The notes beneath the pieces were generated by a model that saw nothing but the letters and a program-made list of their open reading frames with translations, was not told the origin of the DNA and did not search any database. The translations under genes were made by a program, and so were the position numbers. Shown here piece after piece: positions 17,673 through 41,926 of a DNA stretch of 64,000 nucleotides. Source of the stretch: a virus (taxonomy: Duplodnaviria; Caudoviricetes); the IMG/VR virus record IMGVR_UViG_3300020050_016625, positions 70,864 through 134,863 of that record. One strand, given 5' to 3'. Positions within the stretch are counted from its first letter, which is position 1. The number at the start of each line of letters is the position of its first letter.

Positions 17673-18143
17673 ATGCAAACAGTAAACGAATTTCCAGATA
17701 CGGAAAATAAACCAATAATAGCAATTAGTTCAGGATATAGCGAAACTTGTATTGTTAGGTCTTTGTTTTATAATAAGATACTATATGTGGAAACGCTATT
17801 AATTCAAAAACAGTCTTTTTTATCTGAAATGCTGCATAATCATAGCGATATTTTCAACACAGAAAATACCTATATTTTAGGTGCAGAATGTTCAAGTCAA
17901 AAGGCTTGTTTAAGAGAGCAAGGTTTTAATGTATCTTCTGTTATTTTAAGAGATAATATAATTCAAGATTTATTCAACTGTAAAATTATCGTAGTATTTA
18001 AAGGTAAGTATATTGAAACTTGTGCTATTTTAGATGATTTTAAAAAATGCAAAGATACTCATAAATACTATGCAGATAACAGGCTTTTATGGGTTTTGGT
18101 GTTAGCTTTGTCTTATTTCATAGATAAAAAGGCTTTAATGTAA
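17673..18143 (+). CDS. Degenerate stand-alone paralogue of the TerL RNase H-like nuclease domain
   Basis: YILGAECSSQKACLREQGF vs TerL YFISPEASSDKSDFRTAGY; FP...LYVE vs FP...LYVQ; catalytic Asp residues absent. Confidence 0.6.
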   Translation: MQTVNEFPDTENKPIIAISSGYSETCIVRSLFYNKILYVETLLIQKQSFLSEMLHNHSDIFNTENTYILGAECSSQKACLREQGFNVSSVILRDNIIQDLFNCKIIVVFKGKYIETCAILDDFKKCKDTHKYYADNRLLWVLVLALSYFIDKKALM

Positions 18144-18151
18144 GATAAGCC

Positions 18152-18213
18152 ATACACAAGTATGTAGTTTACGTATAAATATTTTTTTATCTCAAATAAA
18201 GCCTATACATTTG
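18152..18213 (+). promoter_or_regulatory. Palindrome-linked promoter cassette
   Basis: ATACACaagtATGTAG, 38 bp, TACATTTG; only a 20-codon ORF follows. Confidence 0.65.
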
Positions 18214-18290
18214 TCTCATAATCAAATGGCAATAACGCTAAAACAATTTTTAATGTTATTCAATTACTATAAGATAACTCATTATTAAAC

Positions 18291-18326
18291 AAAAAACGCT
18301 GCATATTAATTTATGCAGCGTTTTTT
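18291..18326. terminator. Bidirectional terminator, identical to 39075-39110
   Basis: AAAAAACGCTGCATATTAATTTATGCAGCGTTTTTT. Confidence 0.8.
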
Positions 18327-18895
18327 TAACTCCCACAACTATCACAAGTAGAACGTTCTCTATAATTAGGCTTATAGCATGGAATTTCGGTTGCAACAAA
18401 ACTACCAAACATACCACCAAAGGAATCAGTACAAGAGTTATTTAGCCACTGTAAATATAAATCCCTTACACAGTGCGAAAACGCTGCAATACTTTGACAA
18501 ATAACACCATTTGACAATGTTTTTAGGTATTGTTTTAATTTAGCCATTTTTGCCTCACAATCACAATCGCAATTCCCACTTGCTAAATTGGTATTGTAAT
18601 TATCTTTTGCGTAACGATACAAGCAAAATAACAGAAACGCCCTACGTATTATACCCTGCTGTTGTACTGAAAACGCTGCCCCTGTAATATCATCTGTTAT
18701 ATTGCAATTCATTAGCCACGTATTGAATAAATCCCTTGTTTCAGATTCAATAGATGGCATATTATTAGCTAAATTATAGGCAATTTCATTATCTATTTGC
18801 GCAATAGTCAATGTGCCTATTTCATTACTTGCATTACCTGAAACCCACATAATTTGAGTGCCTGTTGCAGGTACGGTTATTTGATATATTCCCAT
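18326..18895 (-). CDS. Putative head completion/connector protein, Cys-rich
   Basis: Directly downstream of the capsid gene; helical; many Cys. Confidence 0.4.
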   Translation of the reverse strand: MGIYQITVPATGTQIMWVSGNASNEIGTLTIAQIDNEIAYNLANNMPSIESETRDLFNTWLMNCNITDDITGAAFSVQQQGIIRRAFLLFCLYRYAKDNYNTNLASGNCDCDCEAKMAKLKQYLKTLSNGVICQSIAAFSHCVRDLYLQWLNNSCTDSFGGMFGSFVATEIPCYKPNYRERSTCDSCGS

Positions 18896-18970
18896 AAAAA
18901 TGTCATTAAAAAAGGCAGTAATAATACGAATATTACTACTACCTTATATCACAAACTATAACCGCCTATT

Positions 18971-20392
18971 TTAAGCACCCGTTGCAAGTGGATTAGTACT
19001 ATTTTCAGGCGCAGGAACTAAGTTTTTAATCCAAAGTCTTTGGTTTTCAGGCGCAAATACTGTGAATAATTCGTAGGCAATGTAAGAAACCGTATCAGTA
19101 TCAGCAGCCACAGACGTAAATGTGTACATTTCTTTGTTGATACCAAAGATGTTATACAACTTAGGAATAACCAACATTACGCCAAAAGAACTGCGAGAAA
19201 AAGCGTCAATACGTTTTTGGAATTTATTTTTATCCAAAACAACTGCGCCAGTTGAGTCCTTTTCTGCTACCCATGCGCCCGAAGGCATCTGCCAGCGTGT
19301 AGCATGGAAAATGATATTAGAATCAAGGGTAACACCAAACATATCACGAGCCAAAGCACGTCTCAACCAACCAATAACTTCTGAACCTGCGGCACTTGGA
19401 TTGTAAACACAGTGTACTTGTGGTAAGATTTCGCCTTCAATATCAACGCCTTCTGAAATTGCAGTATCAATAAGTTTTTGATAACCTTTTTGCAAGTTGT
19501 GAGCCGCACGTACTGTTTTTGCTACCATTTTGTCAGTAAAGCCATCAAACCCACCTGAAACAGGCGCATCTGCAATGTTTTCCGCTTCAAAAACGTATTT
19601 ATCGCTTGGCTTTTTGGTAATTTCAACGTATGCTTGGTATGACTTATTTTTAGCCATTTTGTTACGGAAAGCCGCAAATACACCGTTTACACCACCGATA
19701 GAAGTAAAGAAAGATGTCAATTCTTGCTCAACATTACCATACATCAAACAAGCCCCAAATTTACGAAACTCGGTTGTTTGCAACTTACCAAGTTTGATTG
19801 TTTGGCGTGGCTTAATCGGTTCGTGGTCAATGATTTCTTGCACCTCAATATATTGATTAATATCAATAATTTTAGCGGAGGCTTTTCCGATTAATTGACT
19901 TGTGATTGTGTACAATTCCACATAACCCAAATCAACTTGTGTTTGTGTGCTACGTGGCATGGTTAAGTTCACTTCTGTTGCACCTGCAATAATGCCTTGT
20001 GCTTCTGTTGAGAGTGCTTTTTGACGTGCTTGTAACAAGCCATTTGTTTCCCCCAAAAGGAATGAGGCTTCCAAAGATGCAGATTGCATAGCGAGTGGCC
20101 CGTAGAAGTTTTCAAATGTTTTTTCAACATGATTAACTCCCGTTGCTTTAGGGTCATCTTTTGCTGCTTTACTTTTTATAGATTCACTTGCAACATAGTT
20201 GAAGTCATCGGCAGTTTTATAGAAAAAATCTTCTGAAAAAGATTCTTTTTTCTGCTTAATAGCGTGTTCGATACCTCTTGCATCTTCTGTATTTACAATG
20301 GTAGGCAAATCCATTAGAACTGCGTGGTATGCTTGCATTTTCTCTCGGTGAGTTTGAAATGCTAATGTATTTTGAAAAACAAAATGTTCCAT
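18971..20392 (-). CDS. Putative major capsid protein (HK97 fold)
   Basis: Position after protease and decoration genes; 473 aa; E-loop/backbone-like TTEFRKFGACLMY segment. Confidence 0.65.
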   Translation of the reverse strand: MEHFVFQNTLAFQTHREKMQAYHAVLMDLPTIVNTEDARGIEHAIKQKKESFSEDFFYKTADDFNYVASESIKSKAAKDDPKATGVNHVEKTFENFYGPLAMQSASLEASFLLGETNGLLQARQKALSTEAQGIIAGATEVNLTMPRSTQTQVDLGYVELYTITSQLIGKASAKIIDINQYIEVQEIIDHEPIKPRQTIKLGKLQTTEFRKFGACLMYGNVEQELTSFFTSIGGVNGVFAAFRNKMAKNKSYQAYVEITKKPSDKYVFEAENIADAPVSGGFDGFTDKMVAKTVRAAHNLQKGYQKLIDTAISEGVDIEGEILPQVHCVYNPSAAGSEVIGWLRRALARDMFGVTLDSNIIFHATRWQMPSGAWVAEKDSTGAVVLDKNKFQKRIDAFSRSSFGVMLVIPKLYNIFGINKEMYTFTSVAADTDTVSYIAYELFTVFAPENQRLWIKNLVPAPENSTNPLATGA

Positions 20393-20474
20393 GTTTATCT
20401 TAAAATAAGTGATTTAGATTTTTTTAAGTAAGCAGTTTTTAGGCTGCTTACTCTGATATATTATTGTTCAATTA

Positions 20475-21740: not shown

Positions 21741-21765
21741 TTTATTTTATAATTTTGAATGTTGA

Positions 21766-23256: not shown

Positions 23257-23281
23257 ATTATGAGTATATGTTATGTATTAA

Positions 23282-23324: not shown

Positions 23325-23371
23325 GTAAACAAAATATATATTTAGTAGTTATATATGTTTAAATCATAAAT

Positions 23372-24085
23372 ATGGGAACATTACAATATTCAAAAGTACA
23401 AGTTTTAGATATGCTAAATAAGAAAGTAGCTGCAAAAATGCTAAGCTCTTGCGCACTTAGGCATTGGCATAATCAATACATTCCTTTTAAAAATAGGAAA
23501 AGGTTTATACTTGACAAAATGTATATAGAGAAAATAAGTGCAGTCTTTGGCAAAGAAAGCGATATAATAGGCTACAATGTGATTGTTTCTTATCCTGAAA
23601 AGAAAAGCTACTACGTAAAAGCAGATAAGGTATTGCATGAGTTTAGGGCAAATATAGAGTTGTTTAGAAAAGAAGCTATTGAAAAGATAGATAAGCTATT
23701 TGCGGATTTAGAAAACAAATTGAACAAAGCATTACAAAATAGAGGTATAGAATTAAATAGCTTTTACGATTATCGTTATAGGATTGAAAGACTTGCGAGC
23801 GCAAGACTATTGCAGATATATACATTAGACGAGTTTGTAGTTGATAGAATTATCAGGGATAAAGAAAACAATAAAATAGAAATATTAAAAGTTTTAGATG
23901 CAAAAAGTCTGCAAGAAAAATGCCATTCCGCAGCTACAAATATGGATATTGCTTGTTATATAAAGCTATGTGAAATAAACGACAATCTATTAGCAGAAAT
24001 AGATAGTAGATTAAATGAGAAAGTAGATTATATCTACCAAGCACACGATAAGAAAATAGCTGCATTAACGCAATGGTGGCAATAA
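23372..24085 (+). CDS. Hypothetical protein
   Basis: 237 aa ORF followed by terminator 24085-24119. Confidence 0.6.
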   Translation: MGTLQYSKVQVLDMLNKKVAAKMLSSCALRHWHNQYIPFKNRKRFILDKMYIEKISAVFGKESDIIGYNVIVSYPEKKSYYVKADKVLHEFRANIELFRKEAIEKIDKLFADLENKLNKALQNRGIELNSFYDYRYRIERLASARLLQIYTLDEFVVDRIIRDKENNKIEILKVLDAKSLQEKCHSAATNMDIACYIKLCEINDNLLAEIDSRLNEKVDYIYQAHDKKIAALTQWWQ

Positions 24086-24150
24086 AAAAAACGGCTGTAA
24101 TTTCTTGCAGCCGTTTTTTATTTGTATCTTTGCGTATAAAATAATAAAAC

Positions 24151-25259: not shown

Positions 25260-25351
25260 CTACATAAATATGTAGTTTCTATATAATTATTTTTTTTATC
25301 CAAAATAACCCTATATCTTTGTGCAAGCAATAAGGAAATATATTCTTATTC
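25260..25351 (+). promoter_or_regulatory. Palindrome-linked promoter cassette
   Basis: CTACATaaatATGTAG, 38 bp, TATCTTTG, hairpin; near-identical to the 1816 copy. Confidence 0.8.
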
Positions 25352-25369
25352 ATTAATCACTTATCAATT

Positions 25370-25720
25370 ATGGCAGATAGAATAATAATCACAAAAGCAT
25401 TAGCAAGTTTTAAAAGAGACTGCAAACAAGCAATCGCAAATGGGAAGGCTATAAATATCAAAACGATTATTTCGTTTATGTCAAGTTTAGGCATTACCGT
25501 AACGGAAACAAAGACAGAAAAAACAATCGAAACAGGCAAAATGTCTTGCGGTGTTGTTTTTAGCCGCAAATATAAAATTAGCAAAGGTTATGAATTTATA
25601 TTTGATGGCGTAAAATACGCCTATAATTCATTAGAACAAAATAGTAGTTATTCAATAACATCTAAATTTGCTAATATAGATGTTTTATTAGTAATGAGTA
25701 GAAATTTTCTAAATAATTAG
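25370..25720 (+). CDS. Hypothetical protein
   Basis: Downstream of the cassette promoter. Confidence 0.65.
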   Translation: MADRIIITKALASFKRDCKQAIANGKAINIKTIISFMSSLGITVTETKTEKTIETGKMSCGVVFSRKYKISKGYEFIFDGVKYAYNSLEQNSSYSITSKFANIDVLLVMSRNFLNN

Positions 25721-25952
25721 TCAAACAAACAGCCTACTACCTAAAAAAATAGTAGGCTTTTTCGCAACACCTCGAAGATGTAAAAACAGACACAGCCGAG
25801 CGAAAACGTCTTGGATATAGTGAGATTGAAAAGTATGTACCACTAACATAACTCAAAATACAAGCAATAAACAGCCTTTTGTAGCAATACATAAGGCTGT
25901 CTTCTTAAACAAAAAACCTATCTAATCGTTATTATCAAAATGTTTTAATACT

Positions 25953-26636
25953 ATGATAAATGTAATAGCAGCCGATTATGCAGGTGTTAGGCAATTAGAA
26001 ATAAGAACTACGAATGTAATTATTTCCCACAAAAACAATACCTTTGCTATTGAGTTTGAATGTCGCAGATTATTTCTTGCATGTGGGAAATTAGGTGCAA
26101 AATTCAATCCAAACAATATAAATTATAGCGAACTAATCTTAGATTATAAAGCTAAAAAAGCTGCATTAAATGGCTTTTTAAGAACCGAAAAAATAGACAT
26201 TGAATTACCTGCTTTGCCTGAAACGTTAGCAAATACCTTTATAGTAAACAGGAATAATGAGTTTGGCGAAGTACTAAACATAATCAATCAATGCAAGTTC
26301 TATATAAGGTCGTTATTAGCCTATTGCACAAAGGAACGCATAGCTGCAATACAATCATTGTTTGAAGTAGTTAAGGCGCAAATAACGCTAATAGACTACG
26401 ATTATATAGAAAATAAAAACGAATATATAGTGATTGACTTAGATAATGTATTAAGAGATAAGGGTATTGCTTGGTTAATCATAGAATTAGGGGCAGAAGG
26501 AAATAGTTATGACAAAGTAGGTTATGATTGGGTTTACACAAAGATAGATACAATAAGATTTACACACTTAGATAATGTCTTTTCAATCACAGTCGAATAC
26601 GATACACAAGAAATCGGGGAAATAAAGTTGATATAA
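25953..26636 (+). CDS. Hypothetical protein
   Basis: 227 aa ORF ending at convergent terminator 26638-26670. Confidence 0.6.
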   Translation: MINVIAADYAGVRQLEIRTTNVIISHKNNTFAIEFECRRLFLACGKLGAKFNPNNINYSELILDYKAKKAALNGFLRTEKIDIELPALPETLANTFIVNRNNEFGEVLNIINQCKFYIRSLLAYCTKERIAAIQSLFEVVKAQITLIDYDYIENKNEYIVIDLDNVLRDKGIAWLIIELGAEGNSYDKVGYDWVYTKIDTIRFTHLDNVFSITVEYDTQEIGEIKLI

Positions 26637-26675
26637 TAAAGGCTGCTAAGCTAATCCCTTAGCAGCCTTTATTCT

Positions 26676-27191
26676 TTACCCTAATGTCGCTTTTATTGCC
26701 TTAATATCCCCATCGCTTGCGCCTATTAATTTAATAATTTGAATGTCGTATTTACTGAATATACTACATATACGGTCGTACTCATTTAGCATTACCTCAA
26801 AATTATCTTTACTTTGCATTTTCCTTTGCCAATCAAAATAATCTCTTGTATGAATTAAGCTATAAAGCGCAATTTGCGTATCACTTGGCTTCTCTGTTAC
26901 TATAAATTCTTTTTGAATCAAGTCGTAATGTATATCGAAATTAATAACATCTAATCTTTTTGAAGGGTGTACAAAGCACCGCAATAAAAATACAAGTATA
27001 TCATTACCAGAAACAATTACATTCGTATCAATGGCAATACTATTTATAGGGTATTTTTTACCAATATAGCCTAAAAGATACAATACTTTTTGATAATCAA
27101 AAGAGAAATCAGCAAAATCTACTGAAATTTCGCTAAAATAAAACATCTGCACTATATCCGTTATAGTTTCGGTTGTGTATTTCGTTTTCAT
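26676..27191 (-). CDS. Degenerate DUF262-like protein (tandem paralogue)
   Basis: Clear paralogue of 27188 (KYPINSI, YDL, PSDTQIA); QR and DGQQR motifs lost. Confidence 0.5.
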   Translation of the reverse strand: MKTKYTTETITDIVQMFYFSEISVDFADFSFDYQKVLYLLGYIGKKYPINSIAIDTNVIVSGNDILVFLLRCFVHPSKRLDVINFDIHYDLIQKEFIVTEKPSDTQIALYSLIHTRDYFDWQRKMQSKDNFEVMLNEYDRICSIFSKYDIQIIKLIGASDGDIKAIKATLG

Positions 27192-27724
27192 ACAAATAAA
27201 TTAATACGTTCTTTTATAGTTTGAATATCTTTGTCGCTTGCACGATATAAAGTAAATATTGAAATATTGAATTTATCTACCATATCGCTTATTCTTTGAT
27301 ACTCTTTTAATAGCATTTCAAACCCTGCTATATCTTTCATTTTACGTTCCCATAAAAAGCAGTCTCTTGTATCTAACAGACTTTGTACGGCAATTTGTGT
27401 ATCGCTTGGATTTTCCGTGAAAAGAAACTGCTTTGTATGCAGGTCGTAATATACTTTGTAGCCTACTATTTTCAATTCGTGTTTCGGGTGAGCAAAACAT
27501 TTCAGGATAGCAACTAAGGCGTTAATACCTAATACAGCCGTTACATCCCCTTCCTTGTCTTTGTTTAAGGTAATGCCATTAATAGGATAGTGTTTTGAAA
27601 TACTATCTAACATAATAAGCACATCTTTTTCAGTCCATGTGTAGCTGCTGTTTTCAGGAAAAGTAAAATCTTTTCTAATAAAATCAATAACCAAATCAAT
27701 AATGCCTTTTTTGCGATATGTCAT
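27188..27724 (-). CDS. Degenerate DUF262-like protein
   Basis: FPENSSYTWTEKDV..MLDSISKHYPING, AVLGINAL in place of DGQQRL, IKERIN in place of IFERIN. Confidence 0.55.
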   Translation of the reverse strand: MTYRKKGIIDLVIDFIRKDFTFPENSSYTWTEKDVLIMLDSISKHYPINGITLNKDKEGDVTAVLGINALVAILKCFAHPKHELKIVGYKVYYDLHTKQFLFTENPSDTQIAVQSLLDTRDCFLWERKMKDIAGFEMLLKEYQRISDMVDKFNISIFTLYRASDKDIQTIKERINLFV

Positions 27725-28779
27725 AAATAGAGTTTGATAAGTGAGATGTAAGTAGATATACTAATTTGTTCTAACAACTTGAACTCATCGCCTACTTTTT
27801 TGAGTTGAAATAATACTTTATTGAAATTAGAATCTTTAGCATACAAACCAAGTTCTTTGCCTTCTAAATCGCTAATGTTTTGTAACTCGTCTTTCAAGTC
27901 GTTCAATAAGCAACGTTTTGCCCTAACGATAACAATAAATATTTCTTTCAAGTCGTAACGGTCTTGCAAGAACTTATTGAAATCAATATGAAATTTGTCG
28001 AAATACTTGCTTACCTTAATAAGTATTTCTTTATTGTGAGCGTAATTTTCATCGCCTTTTTTCAACAAAGCAAGCAAGTCGTATGCAGGGCTTTTTAGTT
28101 TCAATCTATTGAAATTTTCATCTACCAAAACATAGCCCTCACAAGTAACAGGATTCATATCCTTTACAATCTGTTTTAGCGTATCAAAATTATAGCATAC
28201 ACTTTCTGTCATAATATGAAATTCTCGCAATGTTTCATTATCCCTTTCACCTATTAAACTAATACTTTCGGTTGCGGCTTGCGTAATAAATTGCGTATCG
28301 CTTGGAAACTTAAATTCAAACATGTGTGTGCAATCTTTATCCAACTCATACCCATACCCTAACTTATTCCACACATGCCAAAAATAATCAGCATACGATA
28401 TACCTTTATGCCTAATCATTCCACTTGCATCTGCACTGCTTTTTGTGGATACATTCCAAGTGCCATTATAAAACCAAACGTTGCAAAGTGAGCCATCTAT
28501 TTTTTCAGTAAAATAAAACTCATTGAAATCAAAGTTTGTCTTTACATTTTCGTTGTAATCAAAAAATCTATCAAACGGATAACAAATAATTTCAAAGGTA
28601 TCTTTATTGACAATAATACCCCTACAACTATTCGTAATTTCGTTTTTAGGCGACTTTGTGTGGTGGTAGCATAAACATACTAATTCAGGATAAATAAGGC
28701 TATAATCAGCCTTTATATGAAATTCACTACATAGTGTAGCTATTCCCTTTTCCTTTAAATAATTAATTAATGGAATCAT
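27721..28779 (-). CDS. RNA ligase, T4 Rnl1-like
   Basis: CRGII...PFDRFF, EKIDGSL, EGYVL and LKLKSPAY nucleotidyltransferase motifs. Confidence 0.85.
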   Translation of the reverse strand: MIPLINYLKEKGIATLCSEFHIKADYSLIYPELVCLCYHHTKSPKNEITNSCRGIIVNKDTFEIICYPFDRFFDYNENVKTNFDFNEFYFTEKIDGSLCNVWFYNGTWNVSTKSSADASGMIRHKGISYADYFWHVWNKLGYGYELDKDCTHMFEFKFPSDTQFITQAATESISLIGERDNETLREFHIMTESVCYNFDTLKQIVKDMNPVTCEGYVLVDENFNRLKLKSPAYDLLALLKKGDENYAHNKEILIKVSKYFDKFHIDFNKFLQDRYDLKEIFIVIVRAKRCLLNDLKDELQNISDLEGKELGLYAKDSNFNKVLFQLKKVGDEFKLLEQISISTYISLIKLYL

Positions 28780-29753
28780 AAATATTGTATTGCTAATTTT
28801 GAATTTATTTGGCGTATTTCGGTAAAATCGTTATCTGTGTATTTACATACAATGCAGGTATCATAATCGGAAATAATGCTTTTTAGCGTTTGCATGAATA
28901 AGACTGTATTTTCTTTGTATTTTTCTAATACTACAATGTCTTTTGTCTCGCAATCAATTAGCAAGTAGGTAGAATCAACTATATTTACTAATAAGTAGTT
29001 AGCACCTGCTTTGGTTACTACATGCGAAAACTTTTCAAAAATCGGTGCAATATCGAAATATGTAAATGGTAGCCATTTATCATATAAATACTTAAAATCG
29101 TAGATATTTTTAGGCACATCTAAAATGTAAAAATCTGTCTTTTCAAGTATTTCATTTGCGATATATTCCATTAGATTAGGAATCTCTAAACTATCATAAC
29201 TATTTGAGTATGCATCTCCGTATAAAAGTACTATAAACCAATCATAAAATAAATGAAATTCGATTTCATTCTTTATGTATTTAACGCCTGTATAATTGCC
29301 ATATTTAGCGACCTCACTACTTAATTCAAATCCTATTTTAAGCAACTCGCTAACAAGCATTTCATAGACAAACTCATTTATGTTCACTATATCAATAGTA
29401 CCACCGTCCCACTCATAAGCAGGGTAGTCTTTGTAACCGTTTTTCTTTTCTTGCTTTGTCCAATTTTTCATTTCTTCTTTGTCTCCCTTATCGCAATCGG
29501 TTAGCCATTTGCGCCCGAAATCGCTTTCAATTTGTTGGTGTATTTCATCTTCATACTCGTCTTGCTCACTTTCTCCCATTAGCAAGTAGCTGCTATCAAT
29601 AAGGATATACCAAGTTTCAGGACGTGAACCAATAGGCGTAACTTGCGCCAAAAGTTTGCCATCGCCCATTGTTTGCGCCAAAACAGGTGTAATGGTTTTA
29701 CCTTCCCATTGTCGTGGCTTTAATAAATCTGCTAAATATTGCTCTATTGTCAT
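28776..29753 (-). CDS. Hypothetical acidic protein
   Basis: 325 aa ORF in operon. Confidence 0.6.
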   Translation of the reverse strand: MTIEQYLADLLKPRQWEGKTITPVLAQTMGDGKLLAQVTPIGSRPETWYILIDSSYLLMGESEQDEYEDEIHQQIESDFGRKWLTDCDKGDKEEMKNWTKQEKKNGYKDYPAYEWDGGTIDIVNINEFVYEMLVSELLKIGFELSSEVAKYGNYTGVKYIKNEIEFHLFYDWFIVLLYGDAYSNSYDSLEIPNLMEYIANEILEKTDFYILDVPKNIYDFKYLYDKWLPFTYFDIAPIFEKFSHVVTKAGANYLLVNIVDSTYLLIDCETKDIVVLEKYKENTVLFMQTLKSIISDYDTCIVCKYTDNDFTEIRQINSKLAIQYL

Positions 29754-29812
29754 AACAAATCGTTTTCTTTATAACAAAAAACACCTACAAATGTTTATGC
29801 AGGTGTTTTTTG

Positions 29813-30031
29813 TTAAACCTTTTCTGTTAATTCTAACGACTCCTCATATTGAGTGCGCCACCAATCCGCAGCCTCTTTTTCATAACAAGGCTCGCCTAAA
29901 ATTATTCCATGTGGAAATAGTTTTGTTTGAATAGTGCAGATTCTAAGGTAATACATAGCAGTTTCGCCTTCAAAATTTTGATAAATGGTAATTGTCATTC
30001 CATTTGTGTAATACTTTATGTTTTCTATCAT
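29813..30031 (-). CDS. Hypothetical protein
   Basis: ORF in minus-strand operon. Confidence 0.5.
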   Translation of the reverse strand: MIENIKYYTNGMTITIYQNFEGETAMYYLRICTIQTKLFPHGIILGEPCYEKEAADWWRTQYEESLELTEKV

Positions 30032-30369
30032 AATAATTCAATATCATTTATTTCGGTACTATTTTCACTTAATAGATATAACTTATTACCCTCAACTATG
30101 CGTTTTATGTAAACGTCTTCTTTTGTTCTTTTCTGCCAAAACTCTAAAACATTATTCAATTCCCTTACCGCCTCACGTTCTTTATTTTTGGCATTTTCGT
30201 AGGCTTTTTGAACTGCCTCAAATTCACGTTCTGCTTGCTTAAATCTATCTGCTAAATCTAATAACAACTTGTTTAGGTTACTATCTATATTTTCAGTTTG
30301 ATTGATAATATCAGTAATTGTAGAATACGACATGCCTACTTGCTCATATTCTCCTTTTAAAATTCTCAT
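30028..30369 (-). CDS. Hypothetical coiled-coil protein
   Basis: ORF in operon. Confidence 0.55.
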   Translation of the reverse strand: MRILKGEYEQVGMSYSTITDIINQTENIDSNLNKLLLDLADRFKQAEREFEAVQKAYENAKNKEREAVRELNNVLEFWQKRTKEDVYIKRIVEGNKLYLLSENSTEINDIELL

Positions 30370-30381
30370 ATATTAAATTGA

Positions 30382-30723
30382 TTATTGGTTACACATTTCT
30401 ATTGCCCTGCCCAAAAACGGTTGTAGCTTTTCGGTACACAAAGCTATCTTTGAGAAAGAAGGCAAAATAAGCGTTAATTTGCCATTATTTTCTATCTTTG
30501 AGGGATTTATACTATCTGTAAATACGATTGATTTTTGATAGTCTAAAACCTTTAAATCTAAATCCGTATCACTTGTATAATAAGCAATACTATACTGCGA
30601 AATATCACATTTATGCTTTGTGAAAAGTGCAGTTAAGCCTCCGCCCAATAAGATTTGATTATCAAATTCATGCTTAGGAAATACAAGTATTTTTGTAGTA
30701 TTAGCTTTGTGTAGGATTGTCAT
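30382..30723 (-). CDS. Hypothetical protein
   Basis: ORF in operon. Confidence 0.55.
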   Translation of the reverse strand: MTILHKANTTKILVFPKHEFDNQILLGGGLTALFTKHKCDISQYSIAYYTSDTDLDLKVLDYQKSIVFTDSINPSKIENNGKLTLILPSFSKIALCTEKLQPFLGRAIEMCNQ

Positions 30724-31018
30724 TATCTATGTAGGCTTTAGCTTTTATTGTGATATAAGCAGATATATATGTGATTGTCTTTAACGGTAGCGTTAATTCA
30801 AAGCTAAATAGATTGACAAATAAAGGCACATTGAAATAATTGTCTTTACTATTAAAGAAAGAGATAAGCGTAACAACCTTTATAGCAAAGGCAAATCCCA
30901 CAGTTAATAGACATACAAACCAGTTTGTATAAAATCCCACATAAATAAAGCCATACATGCAAATATTTGAGAATATCGCAGCTAATACAGAAATAAGGTT
31001 TATTTTTCTTTGTCTCAT
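30701..31018 (-). CDS. Putative membrane protein
   Basis: 2-3 hydrophobic segments. Confidence 0.55.
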   Translation of the reverse strand: MRQRKINLISVLAAIFSNICMYGFIYVGFYTNWFVCLLTVGFAFAIKVVTLISFFNSKDNYFNVPLFVNLFSFELTLPLKTITYISAYITIKAKAYIDNDNPTQS

Positions 31019-31548
31019 AAATTTAACAAATGGTTAAAGTCGCTTGTGTTATGAACATAATTGAACGGGTGTATTGATATGCCTACCTTTGTGGCAAAAT
31101 AATAAAAGTTGTATAACTGCATTATATTGCTTGGTGTTTTATCCATTACTTTGCCTTCAAAAAACGCCTTTACACGCTTTTCCATTACATCATTAAACAT
31201 TAATTCAAGTGGCTTTTGGGTATGTAATGAATCTATTTTCTCATACATATTGAATTGATTTTCATACCTGAATTTCTGCCACCAATCAAAATCAATCAGC
31301 ATGAAATAAGGCGAAAACCTATCGCCTAATCTTTCTATCAATACATGAAAATTAGGATATTCCATATTATTGTAGGCTATTGAATCACTTTCATAAACCA
31401 TTTCACAAGTAATAGGACTTGTCGTGCTAAAACGCCAGCACTCCATAAAATCAAAAATGCTATTATTGTCGTTTGTGAGCGCAAATTTTAAGGGAATGAG
31501 TAATGCCCTATTTTTTATCGGTTTATGTGTTGCTTGACAATGATACAT
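31015..31548 (-). CDS. Hypothetical protein
   Basis: ORF in operon. Confidence 0.55.
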   Translation of the reverse strand: MYHCQATHKPIKNRALLIPLKFALTNDNNSIFDFMECWRFSTTSPITCEMVYESDSIAYNNMEYPNFHVLIERLGDRFSPYFMLIDFDWWQKFRYENQFNMYEKIDSLHTQKPLELMFNDVMEKRVKAFFEGKVMDKTPSNIMQLYNFYYFATKVGISIHPFNYVHNTSDFNHLLNL

Positions 31549-32045
31549 TTTTTAAATATGTTTAGTTTGTGTATGGTTGCGTTATTAAGCAGATTTATAC
31601 AAGGCTTTTCGCCTAACGTATCTAAATCCAAATACGGGTGTAAACGTGTTTGCTTGCATCTTACATTGTTTTCTTTTGTTTTCGATAATAAAGCCTTATA
31701 TAAGCTGCTACATCTAAAACCAAAGTTTTGTACAAAGATATTCGTTTCAATCGCTAATGGCTTAAATCTGCTTTCATTGTCGAAATAAGCTAATGTACGT
31801 GCTTGTTTCTCAAAACCTATTGCTGTATCAATAGCACTATGTGAGTACTTATTAAGCATGTGCGGAAATGACAAACCGATTGCGCCCGAAAATGAATCAT
31901 ACATATCTGCTAATGATATTTGAGGAGGATATGCAGTATTAATAACGGCTTGTTTATGCCTATCGTAGTTTTTTAACTCCCAAAGTAAATGCCTTATTTG
32001 TGGCGTAATTTCTATTTTAGGTAAAGTGAAAAATAAGTCTTTCAT
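31515..32045 (-). CDS. Hypothetical protein
   Basis: ORF in operon. Confidence 0.55.
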   Translation of the reverse strand: MKDLFFTLPKIEITPQIRHLLWELKNYDRHKQAVINTAYPPQISLADMYDSFSGAIGLSFPHMLNKYSHSAIDTAIGFEKQARTLAYFDNESRFKPLAIETNIFVQNFGFRCSSLYKALLSKTKENNVRCKQTRLHPYLDLDTLGEKPCINLLNNATIHKLNIFKKCIIVKQHINR

Positions 32046-32046
32046 A

Positions 32047-32460
32047 TCAAAACAATGATGTTTGTTTAGGATTTTCGTAAAAACGTGCTATTTCGCCAAA
32101 ACCGTAATAAGCAACATCTAATGGAGTTAAATCCCCATTTTCAGTAAGATATTCATAATCGCTAACTGATAAGGCTTTTAGTAAATCAATAAAAACAAAC
32201 ACATCTATGCTAAAACGGGCATAATATGGACTATCTAAGTTTGTACTTATTAATTTCATATCGTAATTTACGTATGCTTTACCATTCCAAATAACAGCCC
32301 TGCTGACTATATTATTAAAATGAATAAAGTCTATCTTTTTGCGAAAACAAATAAGCCCTTCAACTCTATTTGCATAAAATTGTACTGCGTTAAAATAGCT
32401 TTTCATACCACCATTTTCATGCAAGCAATTCAAATCTATTGTAATTTTTGGATTTGCCAT
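32047..32460 (-). CDS. Hypothetical protein
   Basis: ORF in operon. Confidence 0.55.
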   Translation of the reverse strand: MANPKITIDLNCLHENGGMKSYFNAVQFYANRVEGLICFRKKIDFIHFNNIVSRAVIWNGKAYVNYDMKLISTNLDSPYYARFSIDVFVFIDLLKALSVSDYEYLTENGDLTPLDVAYYGFGEIARFYENPKQTSLF

Positions 32461-32981
32461 TATCTTGCTATAATTTCTATTTTTTTAGGCTCATTCTTTC
32501 TCCAATCAATGTCAGGAATAGGAAACACCTCGCCATACTCTTCCGCAAAAAATACAGTCCAAATATCAATAGCCTCCTGCAAACGTTTATTGCTATCGCT
32601 TTTTGAAAAAGATATAATCTTTGTGTCAAAACAGAAAGATATTTTACCCTCACTATCTGCTGTGTGCGTTTCAATATCTTTCTTGTAAAAATCATATATG
32701 GCAATAAGTAGCTTTTTACCAAAGTCCTGCAAATTTGTACCTTTTTTGAAATCTATGCCCCTATATTTTGCATGAATATTTGCAGCCCAAACAAATACTT
32801 TTCCATAAAAGAATTGTCTTTGTTTGTCGCTTATCGCAGCCTCAAATAAATCACAAGCAGCCTGTATTTTTTTGCCGTTATCGGTGTAAAAATCAAACTC
32901 GGCTTTCTCGTAAGGTTCTAATAGTAGTTGATAAATACCTGCTTTGTTTCGCCATAATGGCAAATAGTGTCCTAATAGCAT
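32460..32981 (-). CDS. NinB-like protein (tentative)
   Basis: ISDKQRQFFYGKV and FFAEEYGEVFPIP resemble NinB-like phage proteins. Confidence 0.4.
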   Translation of the reverse strand: MLLGHYLPLWRNKAGIYQLLLEPYEKAEFDFYTDNGKKIQAACDLFEAAISDKQRQFFYGKVFVWAANIHAKYRGIDFKKGTNLQDFGKKLLIAIYDFYKKDIETHTADSEGKISFCFDTKIISFSKSDSNKRLQEAIDIWTVFFAEEYGEVFPIPDIDWRKNEPKKIEIIAR

Positions 32982-33059
32982 ATTTTTGTTTATTTGATTA
33001 TTATAATAACAAAATAAGGCGTATTTTGTTTTAAAATGCGCCTTATTCTTAGTGTTTGA

Positions 33060-33548
33060 TTATTGCTTAATAATTACCCTTAGTTTATTCATTGCCGTAT
33101 GAATACGGTGTTTAACCGTACCTAATGGGATTTGCAAATTTTCTGCTATCTCTTCGTATTTATAACCTTCGTATCGAAACATATACAACGGCTTATATAT
33201 TTCGTAGGGTAACTGCATGAGTGCCTTCTCCATTGATTCTTTTTCTGCCGCAATAACATACGGGTCTGCATCTAAAATACTATATTGAGACTCGCCAATA
33301 GCTTGTGTATTGCGCACTGATAATTTTTTTACGTAGCTATACAATTCGTTGTTTACAAGCCTTGTAATTAAGGCAATAGGCGTTTCCATTTCGGGCGTGT
33401 ACAATTTGTACATTTTTACCCACGCTTCTTGTACCAAGTCCTCACAAACGGCAGGGTCTAATCCTGACTTCTTTTTGCGCATGTGGGCATTGATTTTCGT
33501 GTAATTTGCGTTATAAAACGCTGTAAAGTCTTGTTTAATTGCTTGCAT
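33060..33548 (-). CDS. ECF-type RNA polymerase sigma factor
   Basis: EDLVQEAWVK (region 2) and EGYKYEEIAENLQIPLGTVKHRIH (region 4). Confidence 0.88.
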   Translation of the reverse strand: MQAIKQDFTAFYNANYTKINAHMRKKKSGLDPAVCEDLVQEAWVKMYKLYTPEMETPIALITRLVNNELYSYVKKLSVRNTQAIGESQYSILDADPYVIAAEKESMEKALMQLPYEIYKPLYMFRYEGYKYEEIAENLQIPLGTVKHRIHTAMNKLRVIIKQ

Positions 33549-33692
33549 GATAATTTATAAAGTTTTGCCGCCTTTTTGGTAAGAGCGACCGTTAATAATG
33601 AAATGTAAAGCTAATCCAAGTGGGATAGCTACTAAAAATAAAAATGGATTTGAAATAAGTATGTTTGCCATTGCTTTGTTTAAATTGATGTG

Positions 33693-33811
33693 CAAATCAA
33701 TTAATAAAAAAGCATATAAAAAAATATTATTTCAATTACTACATGTTTATGTCTTAATAGCCTACCTACAAAGGATATATGTATTTATACGCTATTGTTT
33801 GGAAAAGGTTT
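33693..33811 (-). promoter_or_regulatory. Tandem promoters upstream of the sigma gene: ECF-type (33786-33811) and degenerate palindrome cassette (33693-33754)
   Basis: AAACCTTTT...GCGTATAA; CTACATgtttATGTCT 38 bp from TTGATTTG. Confidence 0.55.
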
Positions 33812-33848
33812 TAATAAAATAAAAAAAGGTAGAATTATCTACCCTTTT

Positions 33849-34142
33849 TTATTCGATAAGATTGTTTAGCCTAAAACTTCTTATATCATTTGCGCCCACA
33901 TCTTTGTAAGTAATGATTACTTCTTTGTCCTTAGAGACATAGTAGCCATAATCGCCTTCTGTGTTTCTTTCTGTTTTATACTTGCTTTCATTTGCCACTT
34001 CTGTTTTAGGTACAACACGCCAAAAAGATACGCTTTTCTTACCCTGTAATTTAGCTATTTTCCAAGCTAAAACCATTGCACTAACTTGTGTAACCCCCAT
34101 TTTGATTAGGTTACGAAAAATGCTGTTAAAAATCTGCTTCAT
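33849..34142 (-). CDS. WYL_2 / DUF2693-like SH3-fold protein
   Basis: AMVLAW...VSFW...ITYKDVGANDIRSFRLNNLI. Confidence 0.6.
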   Translation of the reverse strand: MKQIFNSIFRNLIKMGVTQVSAMVLAWKIAKLQGKKSVSFWRVVPKTEVANESKYKTERNTEGDYGYYVSKDKEVIITYKDVGANDIRSFRLNNLIE

Positions 34143-34210
34143 AATAATGTAAGTAATTGAATTATATATACTTATACGTAAAATAAGGATTTTGAGTTGC
34201 TACATTAATA

Positions 34211-34304
34211 CTACATGTATATGTGGTTTCTATATAATACTATTGTATATCAAAATAAAGCATTTACATTTGTGCAAGCAATAAGAGAAACGGTTTTCTT
34301 ATTC
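34211..34304 (+). promoter_or_regulatory. Palindrome-linked promoter cassette
   Basis: CTACATgtatATGTGG, 38 bp, TACATTTG, hairpin. Confidence 0.75.
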
Positions 34305-35042: not shown

Positions 35043-35045
35043 TTT

Positions 35046-35825: not shown

Positions 35826-35871
35826 GTGTAGATAACAAATTATTTTGTATTTTGTTTAATTTGTTTTATAT

Positions 35872-36696
35872 TTGGGGATTAATTACAACTATATGCAGCA
35901 AAAAACCGTTAAAATTACGCTACAATGTAGTAGCGACCTTGCAAGTGAAATGCAAGAAATTGACTTATTAAATACATTCCAAAGTGATTACAATAAGGTA
36001 GAGTTAATGAAACTATCTTTTGAAATGTACAAATGGAACGTAGAAAATTTCCCACCTGATAGGCAAAAGAATGTTAATGAAATTTATAGGCTATTAAGTA
36101 AGGAAATTTGGAATAAAGAAGCGCAAAATGCAGATACGCATGACTTACTTAATATCAATATCGTAGATAATTTCCCTTGTGTAGATATTGCACCTATATA
36201 CTGTTTTTCATTGCAAGAAAACGGGCTTATTGCAGCTATTACAAAAGTCCTCATTATCGAGGAGGATATACCCGAAATTGCAAATAAAGGTGTATATGTG
36301 CAGGAAGTATATGTAAATACGATTAATGCAGATTTTGAGGCTATTTTTGAGTTTATCTCTATTCCTGAAAATGCGATTATCAAATTGCCGTATGTGGGAG
36401 ATGCTGCATTATACCATGCTTTGAATGGCTATTGTATTGAATTTTACAAGCCTGTTGAAAATATTGCAAGTTTGGAAATAATGCTTACTATGTCTCAAAT
36501 AAAATGCAAAGGATTGAATGTAGTAAGCGAAATAGGTAATTTAAGTAGGAATCTTTTGAGTGAATTGAAAGACGATAAGTTTGGGGCTTGTTTGCAGTCG
36601 CTTGCATGGCTGGGTATTATCGAAATGAATATAAAGGTAAGTGTTTATTCTGAAAATGAGTTACTGAAAAGCCAAACTATAAAGCAAAACCTTTAA
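35872..36696 (+). CDS. Degenerate paralogue of the TerL linker plus nuclease domain (start may be 35893)
   Basis: IYRLLSKEIW vs FYRVYALGEW; AITKVLIIEEDIPEIANKGVYVQEVY vs AVVKVAYLPIDIVENGEITAGRGLYVQEVV; NVVSEI vs NLISEL. Confidence 0.6.
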   Translation: MGINYNYMQQKTVKITLQCSSDLASEMQEIDLLNTFQSDYNKVELMKLSFEMYKWNVENFPPDRQKNVNEIYRLLSKEIWNKEAQNADTHDLLNINIVDNFPCVDIAPIYCFSLQENGLIAAITKVLIIEEDIPEIANKGVYVQEVYVNTINADFEAIFEFISIPENAIIKLPYVGDAALYHALNGYCIEFYKPVENIASLEIMLTMSQIKCKGLNVVSEIGNLSRNLLSELKDDKFGACLQSLAWLGIIEMNIKVSVYSENELLKSQTIKQNL

Positions 36697-36753
36697 CAGA
36701 AAAACACCTGCTAAGATTTATCTTAGCAGGTGTTTTTCTTAATTTCATAAACA

Positions 36754-37029: not shown

Positions 37030-37045
37030 AATATTGATTAATTTT

Positions 37046-37768: not shown

Positions 37769-37795
37769 AACCTTTTTGATTGATAGGCGTATAAG
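37768..37795 (+). promoter_or_regulatory. ECF-type promoter
   Basis: AAACCTTTT...GCGTATAAG. Confidence 0.65.
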
Positions 37796-37837
37796 TCTAT
37801 ATAAGGCAATAAGGCTTTATATTTAATGTGAGATATT

Positions 37838-38257: not shown

Positions 38258-38280
38258 AATTAAACTTATCTCAAAATATT

Positions 38281-38754
38281 ATGGATAATAGACCGCCTAA
38301 TTTAGGCTTTAAAACAAACGGTGCTTATCGTGCTACAATCAATTCATTATATAACGAATTAAATACAGGCGATTTATTTGGCATGAAACTACCTGCATTT
38401 CAAAGGGGCTTAGTTTGGAGTGAAAAGCAAAATATTGCGCTTATCGAAAGTCTCATATTAGGAATTGAAATAGGTAGCTATATGGTAAATATTACAGGGC
38501 ATGGAAGTGTTTTTGATAATTTACTCATAGAGGGGCAGCAAAGATTAAACGCATTGCATCTGTATTTTAATAACGCTTTTCCTGTATTTGGGTTTTATTG
38601 GAAAGACTTGAATGTATATGAGCAAAGAGAAATAAGAATAAATAGGCTTTTTACAAAGAATGAAATTTGCATAAAGGACGATGCAAAGCTACGAGAGGTG
38701 TACAATCGCTTCAATTTTGGCGGTACAGCGCACAAAGATAGTGAACGGGCTTAA
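38281..38754 (+). CDS. DUF262 domain protein
   Basis: LPAFQRGLVW, IEGQQRL, YNRFNFGG. Confidence 0.8.
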   Translation: MDNRPPNLGFKTNGAYRATINSLYNELNTGDLFGMKLPAFQRGLVWSEKQNIALIESLILGIEIGSYMVNITGHGSVFDNLLIEGQQRLNALHLYFNNAFPVFGFYWKDLNVYEQREIRINRLFTKNEICIKDDAKLREVYNRFNFGGTAHKDSERA

Positions 38755-38799
38755 AAGTACATATATTTGTATTTTAATTACAAATCTAATACAAATAGT

Positions 38800-39072
38800 A
38801 TGAATACGTCATTTTTAAAAACATTTACAACGGTAACGGGTGAGGTTGTGCAAGGTCTTGCATTAAATGAGTCTCAATTAATGCTTAAATTTATTAAATA
38901 CCTTGAACTTAACCACAAAATAGAATCTCAAAAGGCTAAGTGTTTGGTCTATAATGGCAATGCAGAAAAATTAGCCGAGTTGAATATAAATGGGCAAATG
39001 GCAGCGATAATAGCTACTCAAGTGTCTGCCACCTTGCCAAAAGAATTTAACTTAAACCCGATTGGTAACTAA
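38800..39072 (+). CDS. Hypothetical protein
   Basis: Likely start MNTSF. Confidence 0.5.
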   Translation: MNTSFLKTFTTVTGEVVQGLALNESQLMLKFIKYLELNHKIESQKAKCLVYNGNAEKLAELNINGQMAAIIATQVSATLPKEFNLNPIGN

Positions 39073-39074
39073 TA

Positions 39075-39110
39075 AAAAAACGCTGCATATTAATTTATGC
39101 AGCGTTTTTT
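39075..39110. terminator. Bidirectional terminator, identical to 18291-18326
   Basis: 36-bp exact repeat. Confidence 0.8.
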
Positions 39111-39112
39111 AT

Positions 39113-40378
39113 TTATACAGTAGGTGTAACTGGCGTTTCAGTTGTAGTAGCATTTAACCCTGCTAACATAGTTTCATTTTTCTGCATATAGATTGTAACA
39201 TCGTCTTGTGGGTCTATGCCATACGAATTAAATATTTCAAGTGCAATACCTTTAAAGGTAGGGAACGTTTGTGGTCTGCCAAATTCACTCGCCCACGCCT
39301 CCATGAATAGTAATGCAGATTTTGATTTATCAGTATTCATACTACCACTTGTGGACATCATTAATTCAAATGGTACGCCAAAGCCCGAAACTGACAATTG
39401 AAATAAATCGTTAAATGTTGCGCTATCTACAAAGTTTATCTTACCTGCACCCCTACTTGAATTATAACTCGACAAAGCAGGAATACTACCAAACAAATGT
39501 ACACTTTCTCCTGCTAATGCTTTATTCGTGGATTTTTTAAAATCTTCTTTTAATCCCTTCAATGTCCTTTGTACGTCTAATTGGTCTTCGGGGCTTAATT
39601 CATTAAGTTTTTGTACATCTGTTGAAATTAAGGTAACATCAAAAGGATTCATATTACGCATTAAACCGTTTATTTGTGCGTTAATGAGTTTAACCATACT
39701 TTCAATAAGAAAAGAACTACCATAAATCAAAGGTTCTCCCCAATCATAACCACTAACTGTATTATAAACTGTAATATAAAGCGTGTTAATATCTATGATT
39801 TTATCCCCATTTTCAGACATATAAAGCAATTGTTTTTTACTATTTAGCGTATCGAAATAAAACAAGTCAGGCTTATAAACGATAATCTTTTCTGCATAAC
39901 CCGTTATTTCATTTCGCTGCACTTGAATAAATGACATACCCCATACATCGCAGTCCTTACTGCAAATATTAACAAGTGAATTTAAGCCCCTTGTTTTTGG
40001 AATAATTCCATTATAATCATAAACAGGTATTTCATCTAAAATATAAGTAGCTATTTTCTTTAATACCTTTTTGTTTTTTGCTGTCTCTGAAATATCTATT
40101 TTAACTGTACCTAAAAAAATACAGCGTATATTTATAGCCTTCTTATAGGGCGTAAAAATGAGATATATTAGATTAGAGAAGTTTATATGTAATCTTGGAT
40201 TAATTACATTTAAAAGGCTACCACACTTATTCAATGCCTTTATAAGATTATTTGTGTAATAATCTACATTTGGATTGTCAGTTAATTCAGTTGCACCAAT
40301 AACACCAGTTGTGGTGGTTATCATATCTTGCGAAAAGAATTTAGAGACACGTTTTCTTATATTTGATATAAAACTCAT
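39113..40378 (-). CDS. Putative portal protein
   Basis: Directly after TerL; 421 aa; DVWGMSFI, WGEPLI and GFGVPFELM portal-like segments. Confidence 0.7.
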   Translation of the reverse strand: MSFISNIRKRVSKFFSQDMITTTTGVIGATELTDNPNVDYYTNNLIKALNKCGSLLNVINPRLHINFSNLIYLIFTPYKKAINIRCIFLGTVKIDISETAKNKKVLKKIATYILDEIPVYDYNGIIPKTRGLNSLVNICSKDCDVWGMSFIQVQRNEITGYAEKIIVYKPDLFYFDTLNSKKQLLYMSENGDKIIDINTLYITVYNTVSGYDWGEPLIYGSSFLIESMVKLINAQINGLMRNMNPFDVTLISTDVQKLNELSPEDQLDVQRTLKGLKEDFKKSTNKALAGESVHLFGSIPALSSYNSSRGAGKINFVDSATFNDLFQLSVSGFGVPFELMMSTSGSMNTDKSKSALLFMEAWASEFGRPQTFPTFKGIALEIFNSYGIDPQDDVTIYMQKNETMLAGLNATTTETPVTPTV

Positions 40379-40417
40379 ATTTTCAGTAATTAATCGGCAA
40401 AGTTACATGAATAACTA

Positions 40418-41926
40418 CTACACCGCAAAACTAATTGTCTTACGTTTCAAAGGTGCAAAGGCTGTGTAGGCTGCATACCTAAAAGCATCTATTAAATCGT
40501 CATTCTTTTTCTCTATTACATCTGTGTACATTCCTAACTTTTTATCAATCCTATACTTGTATTCCATTAATTCAGATATAAGATTGATAGAATGATTTTC
40601 GCTATTGCAAACGACATAGATAGGCATATCCCTTAAATAATCTATACCATTTTTTACATCATTATTGCCATTCGTTATATAGTACCCTGCTGTTCTGAAA
40701 TCCGATTTATCACTACTTGCTTCGGGGCTTATAAAATATTGTGCGCTTGTAGGTAGTTTATCTTTATAGGTATTTATGATTTGATTTGCCGTAAAATGTC
40801 TTTGATAAACAACCTCTTGCACATATAAACCCCTACCTGCTGTAATTTCTCCATTTTCTACAATATCAATCGGCAAATAAGCGACTTTTACAACTGCATA
40901 CGGGTGTTCAAAACCCTTATCAACTCCATACACAATTTTATCACAAGCATTTGGAAATGCGTATGTTTTACTCCATTTTGGTATAATACAGCCCTCATTA
41001 TTACCACCCCACTCACCAAGTGCGTACACTCTATAAAAGTTTGTATCATCGTGCATTTTCGATTCCAACGAATCTATATAGTCTTGCGGTAAGAAGGCAT
41101 TATCTTTATAAGTAGTTTTGAGTTTGAAAACTTGTGTATTTAGACGTGCTATTGTTTCAGGCGCAAGGTCTTTATCTTCTTTAATATGCTTATTAAGCCA
41201 AAAATAGCGATTTAACCAATGTGCGCTGTGGGTAGGATTGTAGGTAAATATAATTCTTGAATCACAACCTACTACCCTTAAACGTGTTTCTAATTGCTTA
41301 ATATCGTCAAAGGTAATACCTCCATCTGTTGCCTCCTCAATCCAAAAACCCGTAATGTAAGGAATAGATTTTATCCTATCTGCACCTCCGCTACGTAACC
41401 CTGCGCAAAGTATTTCATTACCATTTTTCGATATTAAGCGGAGGTTACTCATATCTACATCTATATCCAAGCCACGTTCTAAAACCATTGAACGCAATAA
41501 CTCGAACTGTGAATATCTTACAAGGTTCTTTTGCGCCCTTAATAAAACAATCTTTTCCTTCCAAGTTCTAATGTTTGCTATCTTGCATTTTTTAGGGTTT
41601 ATTTCTCCATTTTGTAGTTTCTTATTGTAATCTACACTACCAAAACGCACCTGCATAGCTTTGTGAAACTCCTTTTCACTTGATGCAATTTTCCCAAATT
41701 TTCGCAAAGTATCAAACTCACTTTTTCCATACTTATACTGCATAGCAGATTCCCATTCCTTTACAGACTTGTAAGGCAACATGTAAACATCTAAAATCTT
41801 TTGGGCTGCTGTATGCGATTTTGCGCTACCTGCACCGCCCATGAGATGTTGATATTTGTGTTTTGAACGAAAAAAGGGAATGTATGCTGTATTATATAAA
41901 GCAAGTTTATTTTGCGCAATATTCAT
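40418..41926 (-). CDS. terL: Terminase large subunit (PBSX-like)
   Basis: GGAGSAKS Walker A, FWIEEA Walker B, FTYNP, TYKDNAFLP, ALGEWG, GVDKG and DDLIDAFRY. Confidence 0.93.
   Translation of the reverse strand: MNIAQNKLALYNTAYIPFFRSKHKYQHLMGGAGSAKSHTAAQKILDVYMLPYKSVKEWESAMQYKYGKSEFDTLRKFGKIASSEKEFHKAMQVRFGSVDYNKKLQNGEINPKKCKIANIRTWKEKIVLLRAQKNLVRYSQFELLRSMVLERGLDIDVDMSNLRLISKNGNEILCAGLRSGGADRIKSIPYITGFWIEEATDGGITFDDIKQLETRLRVVGCDSRIIFTYNPTHSAHWLNRYFWLNKHIKEDKDLAPETIARLNTQVFKLKTTYKDNAFLPQDYIDSLESKMHDDTNFYRVYALGEWGGNNEGCIIPKWSKTYAFPNACDKIVYGVDKGFEHPYAVVKVAYLPIDIVENGEITAGRGLYVQEVVYQRHFTANQIINTYKDKLPTSAQYFISPEASSDKSDFRTAGYYITNGNNDVKNGIDYLRDMPIYVVCNSENHSINLISELMEYKYRIDKKLGMYTDVIEKKNDDLIDAFRYAAYTAFAPLKRKTISFAV

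Follow-up and report, generated by a model that had tools for sequence, protein, structure and literature searches.

Predicted non-catalytic copies, one certain and one probable, of the terminase nuclease domain in accessory genes of a Caudoviricetes phage

Outside its packaging operon, a phage of the Caudoviricetes carries a gene for what we predict to be a stand-alone terminase nuclease domain that can no longer cut DNA and, probably, a second gene of the same origin. The phage is known from IMG/VR record IMGVR_UViG_3300020050_016625, a single viral contig of 134,863 bp and 32% GC. The window, as we call the stretch that was analysed, is its right-hand 64 kb (64,000 nucleotides, positions 70,864 to 134,863 of the record). 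The two genes are ORF1 and ORF2, and the protein they resemble is the large terminase subunit, TerL, which is encoded in the same window (Table 1). The explanation we favour, with a probability of about 0.6, is that the two (ORF1 certainly, ORF2 probably) would be ancient, domain-precise duplicates of the nuclease domain of a PBSX-type TerL, most likely the lineage's own. Having lost the metal-binding acidic triad they would not cut DNA in the manner of TerL, and would still be kept by purifying selection. They would act by binding, as structural mimics of the nuclease domain, and a rapidly evolving factor from outside the packaging core, for instance a host defence or part of a competitor aimed at the terminase, is a more likely partner for them than the phage's own motor.

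The reference for everything that follows is the phage's own TerL, by its sequence a bona fide PBSX/Terminase_3 large terminase. It matches Pfam Terminase_3 at 2.8e-28, with a weak Terminase_3C match besides, and has matches in 608 phage records. Its nuclease domain spans approximately residues 297-502 (nt 40418-41038) and keeps all three catalytic residues. We aligned this domain across 14 sequences: the phage's own TerL, a 98% identical twin, one metagenomic relative and TerLs of 11 unrelated phages. Its catalytic positions fall on D in GVDKG, on E in SPEAS (D in most TerLs) and on D in LIDAF.

A first-pass annotation, made by eye, had read ORF1 and ORF2 as fragments of the C-terminal half of TerL, in intact frames on the opposite strand. 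The frames are indeed intact and lie on the plus strand among minus-strand genes, and for ORF1 the likeness stands up to statistics. Its Smith-Waterman score against the phage's own TerL is 77, where 1000 shuffles give 34 +/- 5 and none of the 1000 reaches it (Gumbel P 6e-6). ORF1 residues 6-89 are colinear with TerL 323-419, a stretch that sets YILGAECSSQK beside YFISPEASSDK. Across the 324 ORFs of the genome, TerL is the top non-self match of ORF1, the runner-up scoring 49. Unrelated phages' TerLs match ORF1 as well (L013, P 4e-5; L010, P 9e-4; a third, P 6e-3), so the signal does not depend on this phage's own enzyme. When the own TerL is left out of the TerL-C hidden Markov model (HMM), ORF1 still ranks first of 327 non-TerL ORFs (E 1.4e-4), followed in second place by a 178-aa protein of a related phage, L005 (E 0.026), and hhalign places ORF1 on the TerL-C profile at E 5-7e-5. 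The ESM Atlas contains the exact ORF1 protein, with a model of pTM 0.70, and all five structural neighbours listed for that model are XtmB/TerL or Terminase_3C clusters (TM 0.65-0.68, residues 2-154), which is the RNase H-like terminase fold that the first-pass annotation had expected. ORF1 begins about five residues ahead of the FP motif at the domain boundary. From sequence and model together, we regard it as a complete, stand-alone terminase nuclease domain of the PBSX type.

Routine searches do not see any of this. BLASTP with composition adjustment misses the relation between ORF1 and TerL (E 0.11), a word-based search of 5.8 billion proteins returns zero ORF1 homologs, and a single-sequence AlphaFold model of ORF1 is unusable (pLDDT 36). 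Pfam gives no terminase family (PF17288 Terminase_3C or PF17289 Terminase_6C) at E values up to 1-10 for ORF1, for the 178-aa proteins or for the orthologs of ORF2, and sequence searches of PHROGs and the PDB are likewise empty, be it for ORF1, for ORF2 or for the 178-aa proteins. The own TerL itself reaches only 24 bits against a Terminase_3C cut-off of 26.7, so the Pfam model is insensitive to this lineage. Genes of this kind slip past Pfam and PHROG annotation.

Table 1. Features of the window and of related phages, with the residues at catalytic positions 1, 2 and 3 of the nuclease domain. Coordinates are those of the window unless a related phage is named.
Feature	Coordinates	Strand	Description	Catalytic positions 1/2/3
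TerL	40418-41926	-	502 aa, PBSX/Terminase_3 large terminase; reference for ORF1 and ORF2	D / E / D
ORF1	17673-18143	+	156 aa; family A; stand-alone, catalytically degraded RNase H-like domain homologous to the TerL nuclease	S / E / W
178-aa family A genes	L005:3951-4487; L001:9454-9990		ORF1 homologs in related phages	T / D / K
ORF2	35893-36696	+	267 aa from ATG 35893; family B; probable nuclease-domain homolog	L / P or Y / Q; all three non-acidic
Accessory cassette	17350-18327	.	978 bp: promoter, 54-aa gene, ORF1, promoter/operator element, bidirectional terminator 18291-18327	
54-aa gene	17436-17600	+	upstream of ORF1; promoter -7 box TATATTTG at 17399-17406	
ORF2 promoter	35838-35892	+	host-type (Bacteroidota-style), -7 box TATATTTG at 35867-35874	
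Terminator hairpin	36700-36737	.	strong, bidirectional, directly 3' of ORF2	

The nuclease domain of PBSX/XtmB TerLs (PF17288) has the same fold and the same order of secondary structure as ORF1, and the copies have motifs in common with it, among them an FP that precedes strand 1, an LYV.E within strand 3 and an AG[FY] that follows helix 2. Unlike that domain, the copies stand alone, with no ATPase domain; between one and three of their three catalytic acidic residues are replaced, they fall below the Pfam threshold, they lie outside the packaging operon, and they evolve much faster. The canonical triad consists of a D on strand 1, a D or E after strand 4 and a D on the C-terminal helix, and we read the corresponding residues of the copies from an alignment of the three families (TerL, family A and family B). 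The first-pass annotation had the aspartate of GVDKG replaced by serine in both frames, which is right for ORF1; in ORF2 the aligned residue is L and the serine is its neighbour. Its statement that the DDLID motif is degraded holds for both, the third catalytic D having become W in ORF1 and Q in ORF2. To judge by these residues, neither ORF1, nor the 178-aa proteins, nor ORF2 should be capable of canonical two-metal catalysis. Against this it must be said that inactivity is predicted from sequence, and that ORF1 and the 178-aa proteins each still hold one of the three acidic residues. No ATPase similarity was found in ORF1 or ORF2, and neither is a Walker A/B ATPase-nuclease fusion of the whole-enzyme kind.

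Among the closest things to ORF1 elsewhere are two ESM Atlas clusters of short proteins labelled as terminase large subunit family (159 and 177 aa; 69 and 51 members), similar to it in length and fold (TM 0.65-0.66). These Terminase_3C-only clusters still match the Pfam model and in that respect differ from ORF1. They tell us that nuclease-domain-only products occur in viral data; they may be split genes, fragments at contig ends or true stand-alone genes.

ORF1 has relatives of its own, and they tie it to ORF2. On the contigs that carry ORF2 orthologs, tblastn finds ORF1 to be 25-28% identical over its full length to a 178-aa gene (E 2e-12). In two sets of relatives, L001-L004 and L005/L006, that gene immediately precedes the ORF2 ortholog in the same orientation, with 10 nt between them. 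We refer to ORF1 and the 178-aa genes as family A and to ORF2 and its orthologs as family B. A single conserved promoter sequence stands before ORF2 in the window and in a metagenomic locus, L018, and before the 178-aa gene and ORF2 in L001 and L005; aligned across these four, its mean column identity is 86%. At this locus the window and L018 cleanly lack the family A gene, with the promoter directly adjoining ORF2. The first-pass annotation had started ORF2 at a TTG at 35872, which falls within the -7 box of the promoter, and the real start must therefore be the ATG at 35893. A terminator follows ORF2 directly and makes it a self-contained unit in this genome. Since the same promoter precedes both the 178-aa gene and ORF2, the ancestral unit was likely promoter, family A gene, family B gene and terminator, in that order. 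The family A gene would have been lost from the operon in the present genome, which has instead a diverged family A gene, ORF1, in a strain-variable cassette 18 kb away.

The relatives are few. We searched 50,697 phage records by tblastn with ORF1 and ORF2 and had zero matches, scans of IMG/VR using TerL, family A and family B produced zero further relatives, and a metagenome scan added one ORF2 locus, L018. The 178-aa proteins have no pairwise match to TerL, their link to it running via ORF1 and profiles only, and this counts against the explanation we favour. One stray candidate came up along the way: the 178-aa protein has a weak tblastn match to a 703-aa ORF with a TIR domain, which we rejected at an hhalign probability of <1%. 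The 703-aa protein (faecal phage contig L019, MT836912.1, 259-2370; N-terminal TIR_2 domain, E 1e-11) is unrelated to the terminase copies.

ORF2 is the harder case. It begins with some 90 aa of helical sequence, followed by a probable, strongly diverged core of RNase H-like or TerL-nuclease-like type at about residues 94-250 (in the numbering of the 274-aa frame), and the argument for its homology comes from profiles, fold topology and gene context, not from pairwise scores. When 197 ORFs are scored with a profile built from TerL-C and family A, the three ORF2 orthologs come first, second and third among the non-members, all aligned at the same position, with scores of 25.7-31.3 against a background maximum of 21.5 (empirical Gumbel P 2e-5 to 5e-4). 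By hhalign the E values are 4.6e-4 to 0.015 (0.015 vs TerL-C and 0.004 vs family A, always on one and the same segment). The alignment of the three families is colinear over the whole domain, through the FP motif, strands 1-3 (GVYVQEV vs GLYVQEV), the N..SEL helix and the last helix. The match running from AITKV to GVYVQEV that the first-pass annotation had picked out is real, but the pairwise statistics for ORF2 and TerL do not rise above background. In the relatives ORF2 shares an operon with a proven TerL-like gene, and such fold matches as it has are consistently RNase H-like. We think that ORF2 probably derives from the terminase nuclease domain.

A different account has to be taken seriously, though we find it the less probable: that only family A is terminase-derived, and that ORF2 is an unrelated protein, RNase H-like by another route or of a different fold altogether, which shares an operon with family A in the relatives. 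Several results pull in this direction and away from a terminase origin. Smith-Waterman scores of ORF2 against TerL are at background level (56-62, P 0.0015-0.005), and an unrelated ORF elsewhere in the genome, at 60493-60921 of the whole contig, outscores TerL (65). HMMER with TerL profiles is not significant for ORF2 (E > 1), and there is no Pfam terminase signal and no PDB sequence match. The hhalign probabilities are only 3-33%. The AlphaFold model is poor (pLDDT 42); its topology is RNase H-like at low confidence, with fold matches generic enough to allow another origin, and Foldseek returns nothing for it at E 0.001 or better. The ESM Atlas has no usable match to ORF2. A profile search run exhaustively over 1.8 billion representatives recovers ORF2's own small family only, together with a weak match to CARDB repeats in the same hairpin segment; we take that match, limited to one segment, as chance. 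What keeps us from adopting this account is the common alignment position of all three orthologs, the colinear motifs and the operon partner.

The ORF at 60493-60921 was itself considered as a relative of ORF2. The C-terminus of this 142-aa ORF resembles ORF2 residues 5-42 (window 35893-36020; Smith-Waterman 65, P 0.001), a match limited to an extra N-terminal segment that is variable, being found in the window and L001 variants only and missing in some orthologs. We set the candidate aside; the likeness could stem from a short piece of shuffled sequence or from coincidence.

Are the copies doing anything? The selective constraint on which any function depends is there: across related phages ORF2 has a dN/dS of 0.22-0.27 and the 178-aa gene one of 0.215, compared with 0.022 for TerL and 0.041 for the portal. 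Between the same pair of genomes the protein identity is 99% for TerL, 97% for the portal and 64% for ORF2, and at the protein level the copies diverge 10-25 times faster than TerL and portal in the same genomes. These ratios indicate that the copies are maintained by purifying selection. It could be held that we are looking at decaying, functionless relics of duplicated terminase fragments, given that 5.8 billion proteins yield no close homolog of ORF1, that some strains do without it and that its GC content is low. We consider this very improbable. Frames have stayed intact at about 25% identity to TerL in AT-rich DNA full of potential stops, ORF2 and the 178-aa gene have dN/dS ratios near 0.2, and promoter and terminator are conserved; a chance origin of a 156-codon open frame at 32% GC is, on sequence grounds, very unlikely too. 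Nor are the copies young. Compared as nucleotides, neither ORF1 nor ORF2 has any similarity to TerL, so the duplications must be old, with no recent duplication or gene conversion. Among the 14 TerLs the phage's own scores best for both ORF1 and ORF2, which would fit duplication within the phage lineage.

ORF1 is an accessory gene that varies between strains. Activated-sludge and wastewater metagenomes hold sequences near-identical and related to the contig. In two such runs from different studies (X1 and X3) the cassette is absent, and 20 nt of filler link position 17349 to 18328. In run X4 the body of ORF1 has been replaced (loose ends at 17680 and 18125), and in X2 the 5' part of ORF1 is present. 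The related phage L001 keeps the 54-aa gene that precedes ORF1 (81% DNA identity) and has an unrelated 86-aa ORF in the place of ORF1. The promoter box of the 54-aa gene resembles the ORF2 promoter, and a weak hairpin (17610-17638) lies between the 54-aa gene and ORF1. Both copies are predicted to run from host-type promoters of their own.

Terminases are among the most conserved of phage proteins and are a main target of bacterial pattern-recognition immunity, through Avs1-3 and Upx. We know of no described case in which a phage makes a countermeasure out of its terminase. The first-pass annotation had said as much, and our full-text literature searches agree, in that neither terminase-nuclease paralogs with a dead active site nor decoys derived from a terminase turned up in them. 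One parallel is conceptual: poxvirus K3L, a mimic of eIF2alpha that diverts PKR, is a viral, non-functional copy of a protein that is sensed or targeted, and such a copy could occupy the host factor. K3L mimics a host protein, whereas the phage copies would mimic the virus's own enzyme. New in the present case are the PBSX type, two diverged families in one operon, and the relocation of one member to a variable cassette. A nuclease-domain copy that is kept by selection yet predicted not to cut, in an accessory, strain-variable operon, gives concrete form to the hypothesis that a phage might mimic the very protein by which it is sensed.

One specific version of that hypothesis, proposed in the first-pass annotation, is an immune decoy: the copies would occupy Avs1-3 or Upx-like sensors without activating them and so shield the real TerL. 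We hold it to be possible but rather unlikely. A TerL nuclease fold in an accessory, strain-variable and fast-evolving locus is what one might look for in a decoy, and host-type promoters apart from the structural operons would permit expression ahead of TerL. SeAvs3 binds the native nuclease domain extensively, reading active-site residues of TerL together with the ATP bound to its ATPase domain, and KpAvs2 can respond to nuclease domains (bioRxiv 10.64898/2026.04.30.721860). The premise that sensors read the active site is therefore sound for SeAvs3, but it tells against a decoy, for those are the residues that the copies have lost. They also lack the ATPase domain and the bound ATP on which EcAvs2, triggered by the ATPase domain, and SeAvs3 rely (bioRxiv 10.64898/2026.04.30.721860), and the literature offers no precedent that we could find. 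Fast evolution, presence or absence by strain and promoters of host type would suit an accessory gene of conflict in general and do not point to a decoy in particular. A somewhat wider proposal, on which we would place a similarly small wager, has families A and B as an operon dedicated to counter-defence, which would stop systems of the host or of competitors from acting on the terminase, with family A swapped or relocated to track diversifying sensors.

The main alternative lies within packaging itself, where the first-pass annotation had also looked, and we give it about as little weight. Here the copies would dock at the portal, the TerL ring, TerS or DNA ends, either to tune the phage's own headful cutting or to poison, as dominant negatives, co-infecting phages and satellites. 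Their likely origin from the phage's own TerL speaks for it, as does the distance of ORF2 from portal and TerL, which is 4 kb in every relative. A protein that works on a machine conserved at 97-99% would not be expected to diverge 10-25 times faster than TerL and portal, however, and the ORF1 cassette is dispensable and neither copy belongs to the late operon, which runs on the other strand. Rapid protein change and strain-variable presence, set against a near-invariant TerL and portal, are what lead us to favour mimics acting by binding on a partner outside the packaging core. Should their role prove to lie in packaging or in competition between phages, the copies would still add to an undescribed class of terminase pseudo-enzymes.

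A few further observations belong to the neighbourhood of these genes. As to the host, TAnnTTTG-type promoter boxes and lipoprotein signals suggest a member of the Bacteroidota. A transposase gene (15175-16365, minus strand, 396 aa, PHROG 506, E 6e-48) lies 1.3 kb from the ORF1 cassette. Directly after ORF1, at 18147-18281 on the plus strand, comes an inverted repeat (CATAC-N4-GTATG) and, about 35 nt further on, a TACATTTG -7 box with a 19-codon ORF. Within this element 66 bp (18153-18218) are 77% identical, in opposite orientation, to a segment downstream of ORF2 in L001, and it looks like a reused operator/promoter module. Contigs of related strains in metagenomes join across 23347-24113 (765 bp skipped) and across 25310-34280 (about 9 kb skipped), so there are more strain-variable blocks between ORF1 and ORF2. 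Another variable block, between ORF2 and the portal gene, holds a stand-alone DUF262/GmrSD_N-like gene (window 38281-38754, plus strand; L005:6742-7215); L018 is without this block. Lastly, TerL has an apparent insertion of about 75 aa (residues ~46-122) between the Walker A region and the remaining ATPase domain. Pfam and most tblastn matches begin at residue 123, and inside the insertion are two similar KE[WF]..AMQ.. segments.

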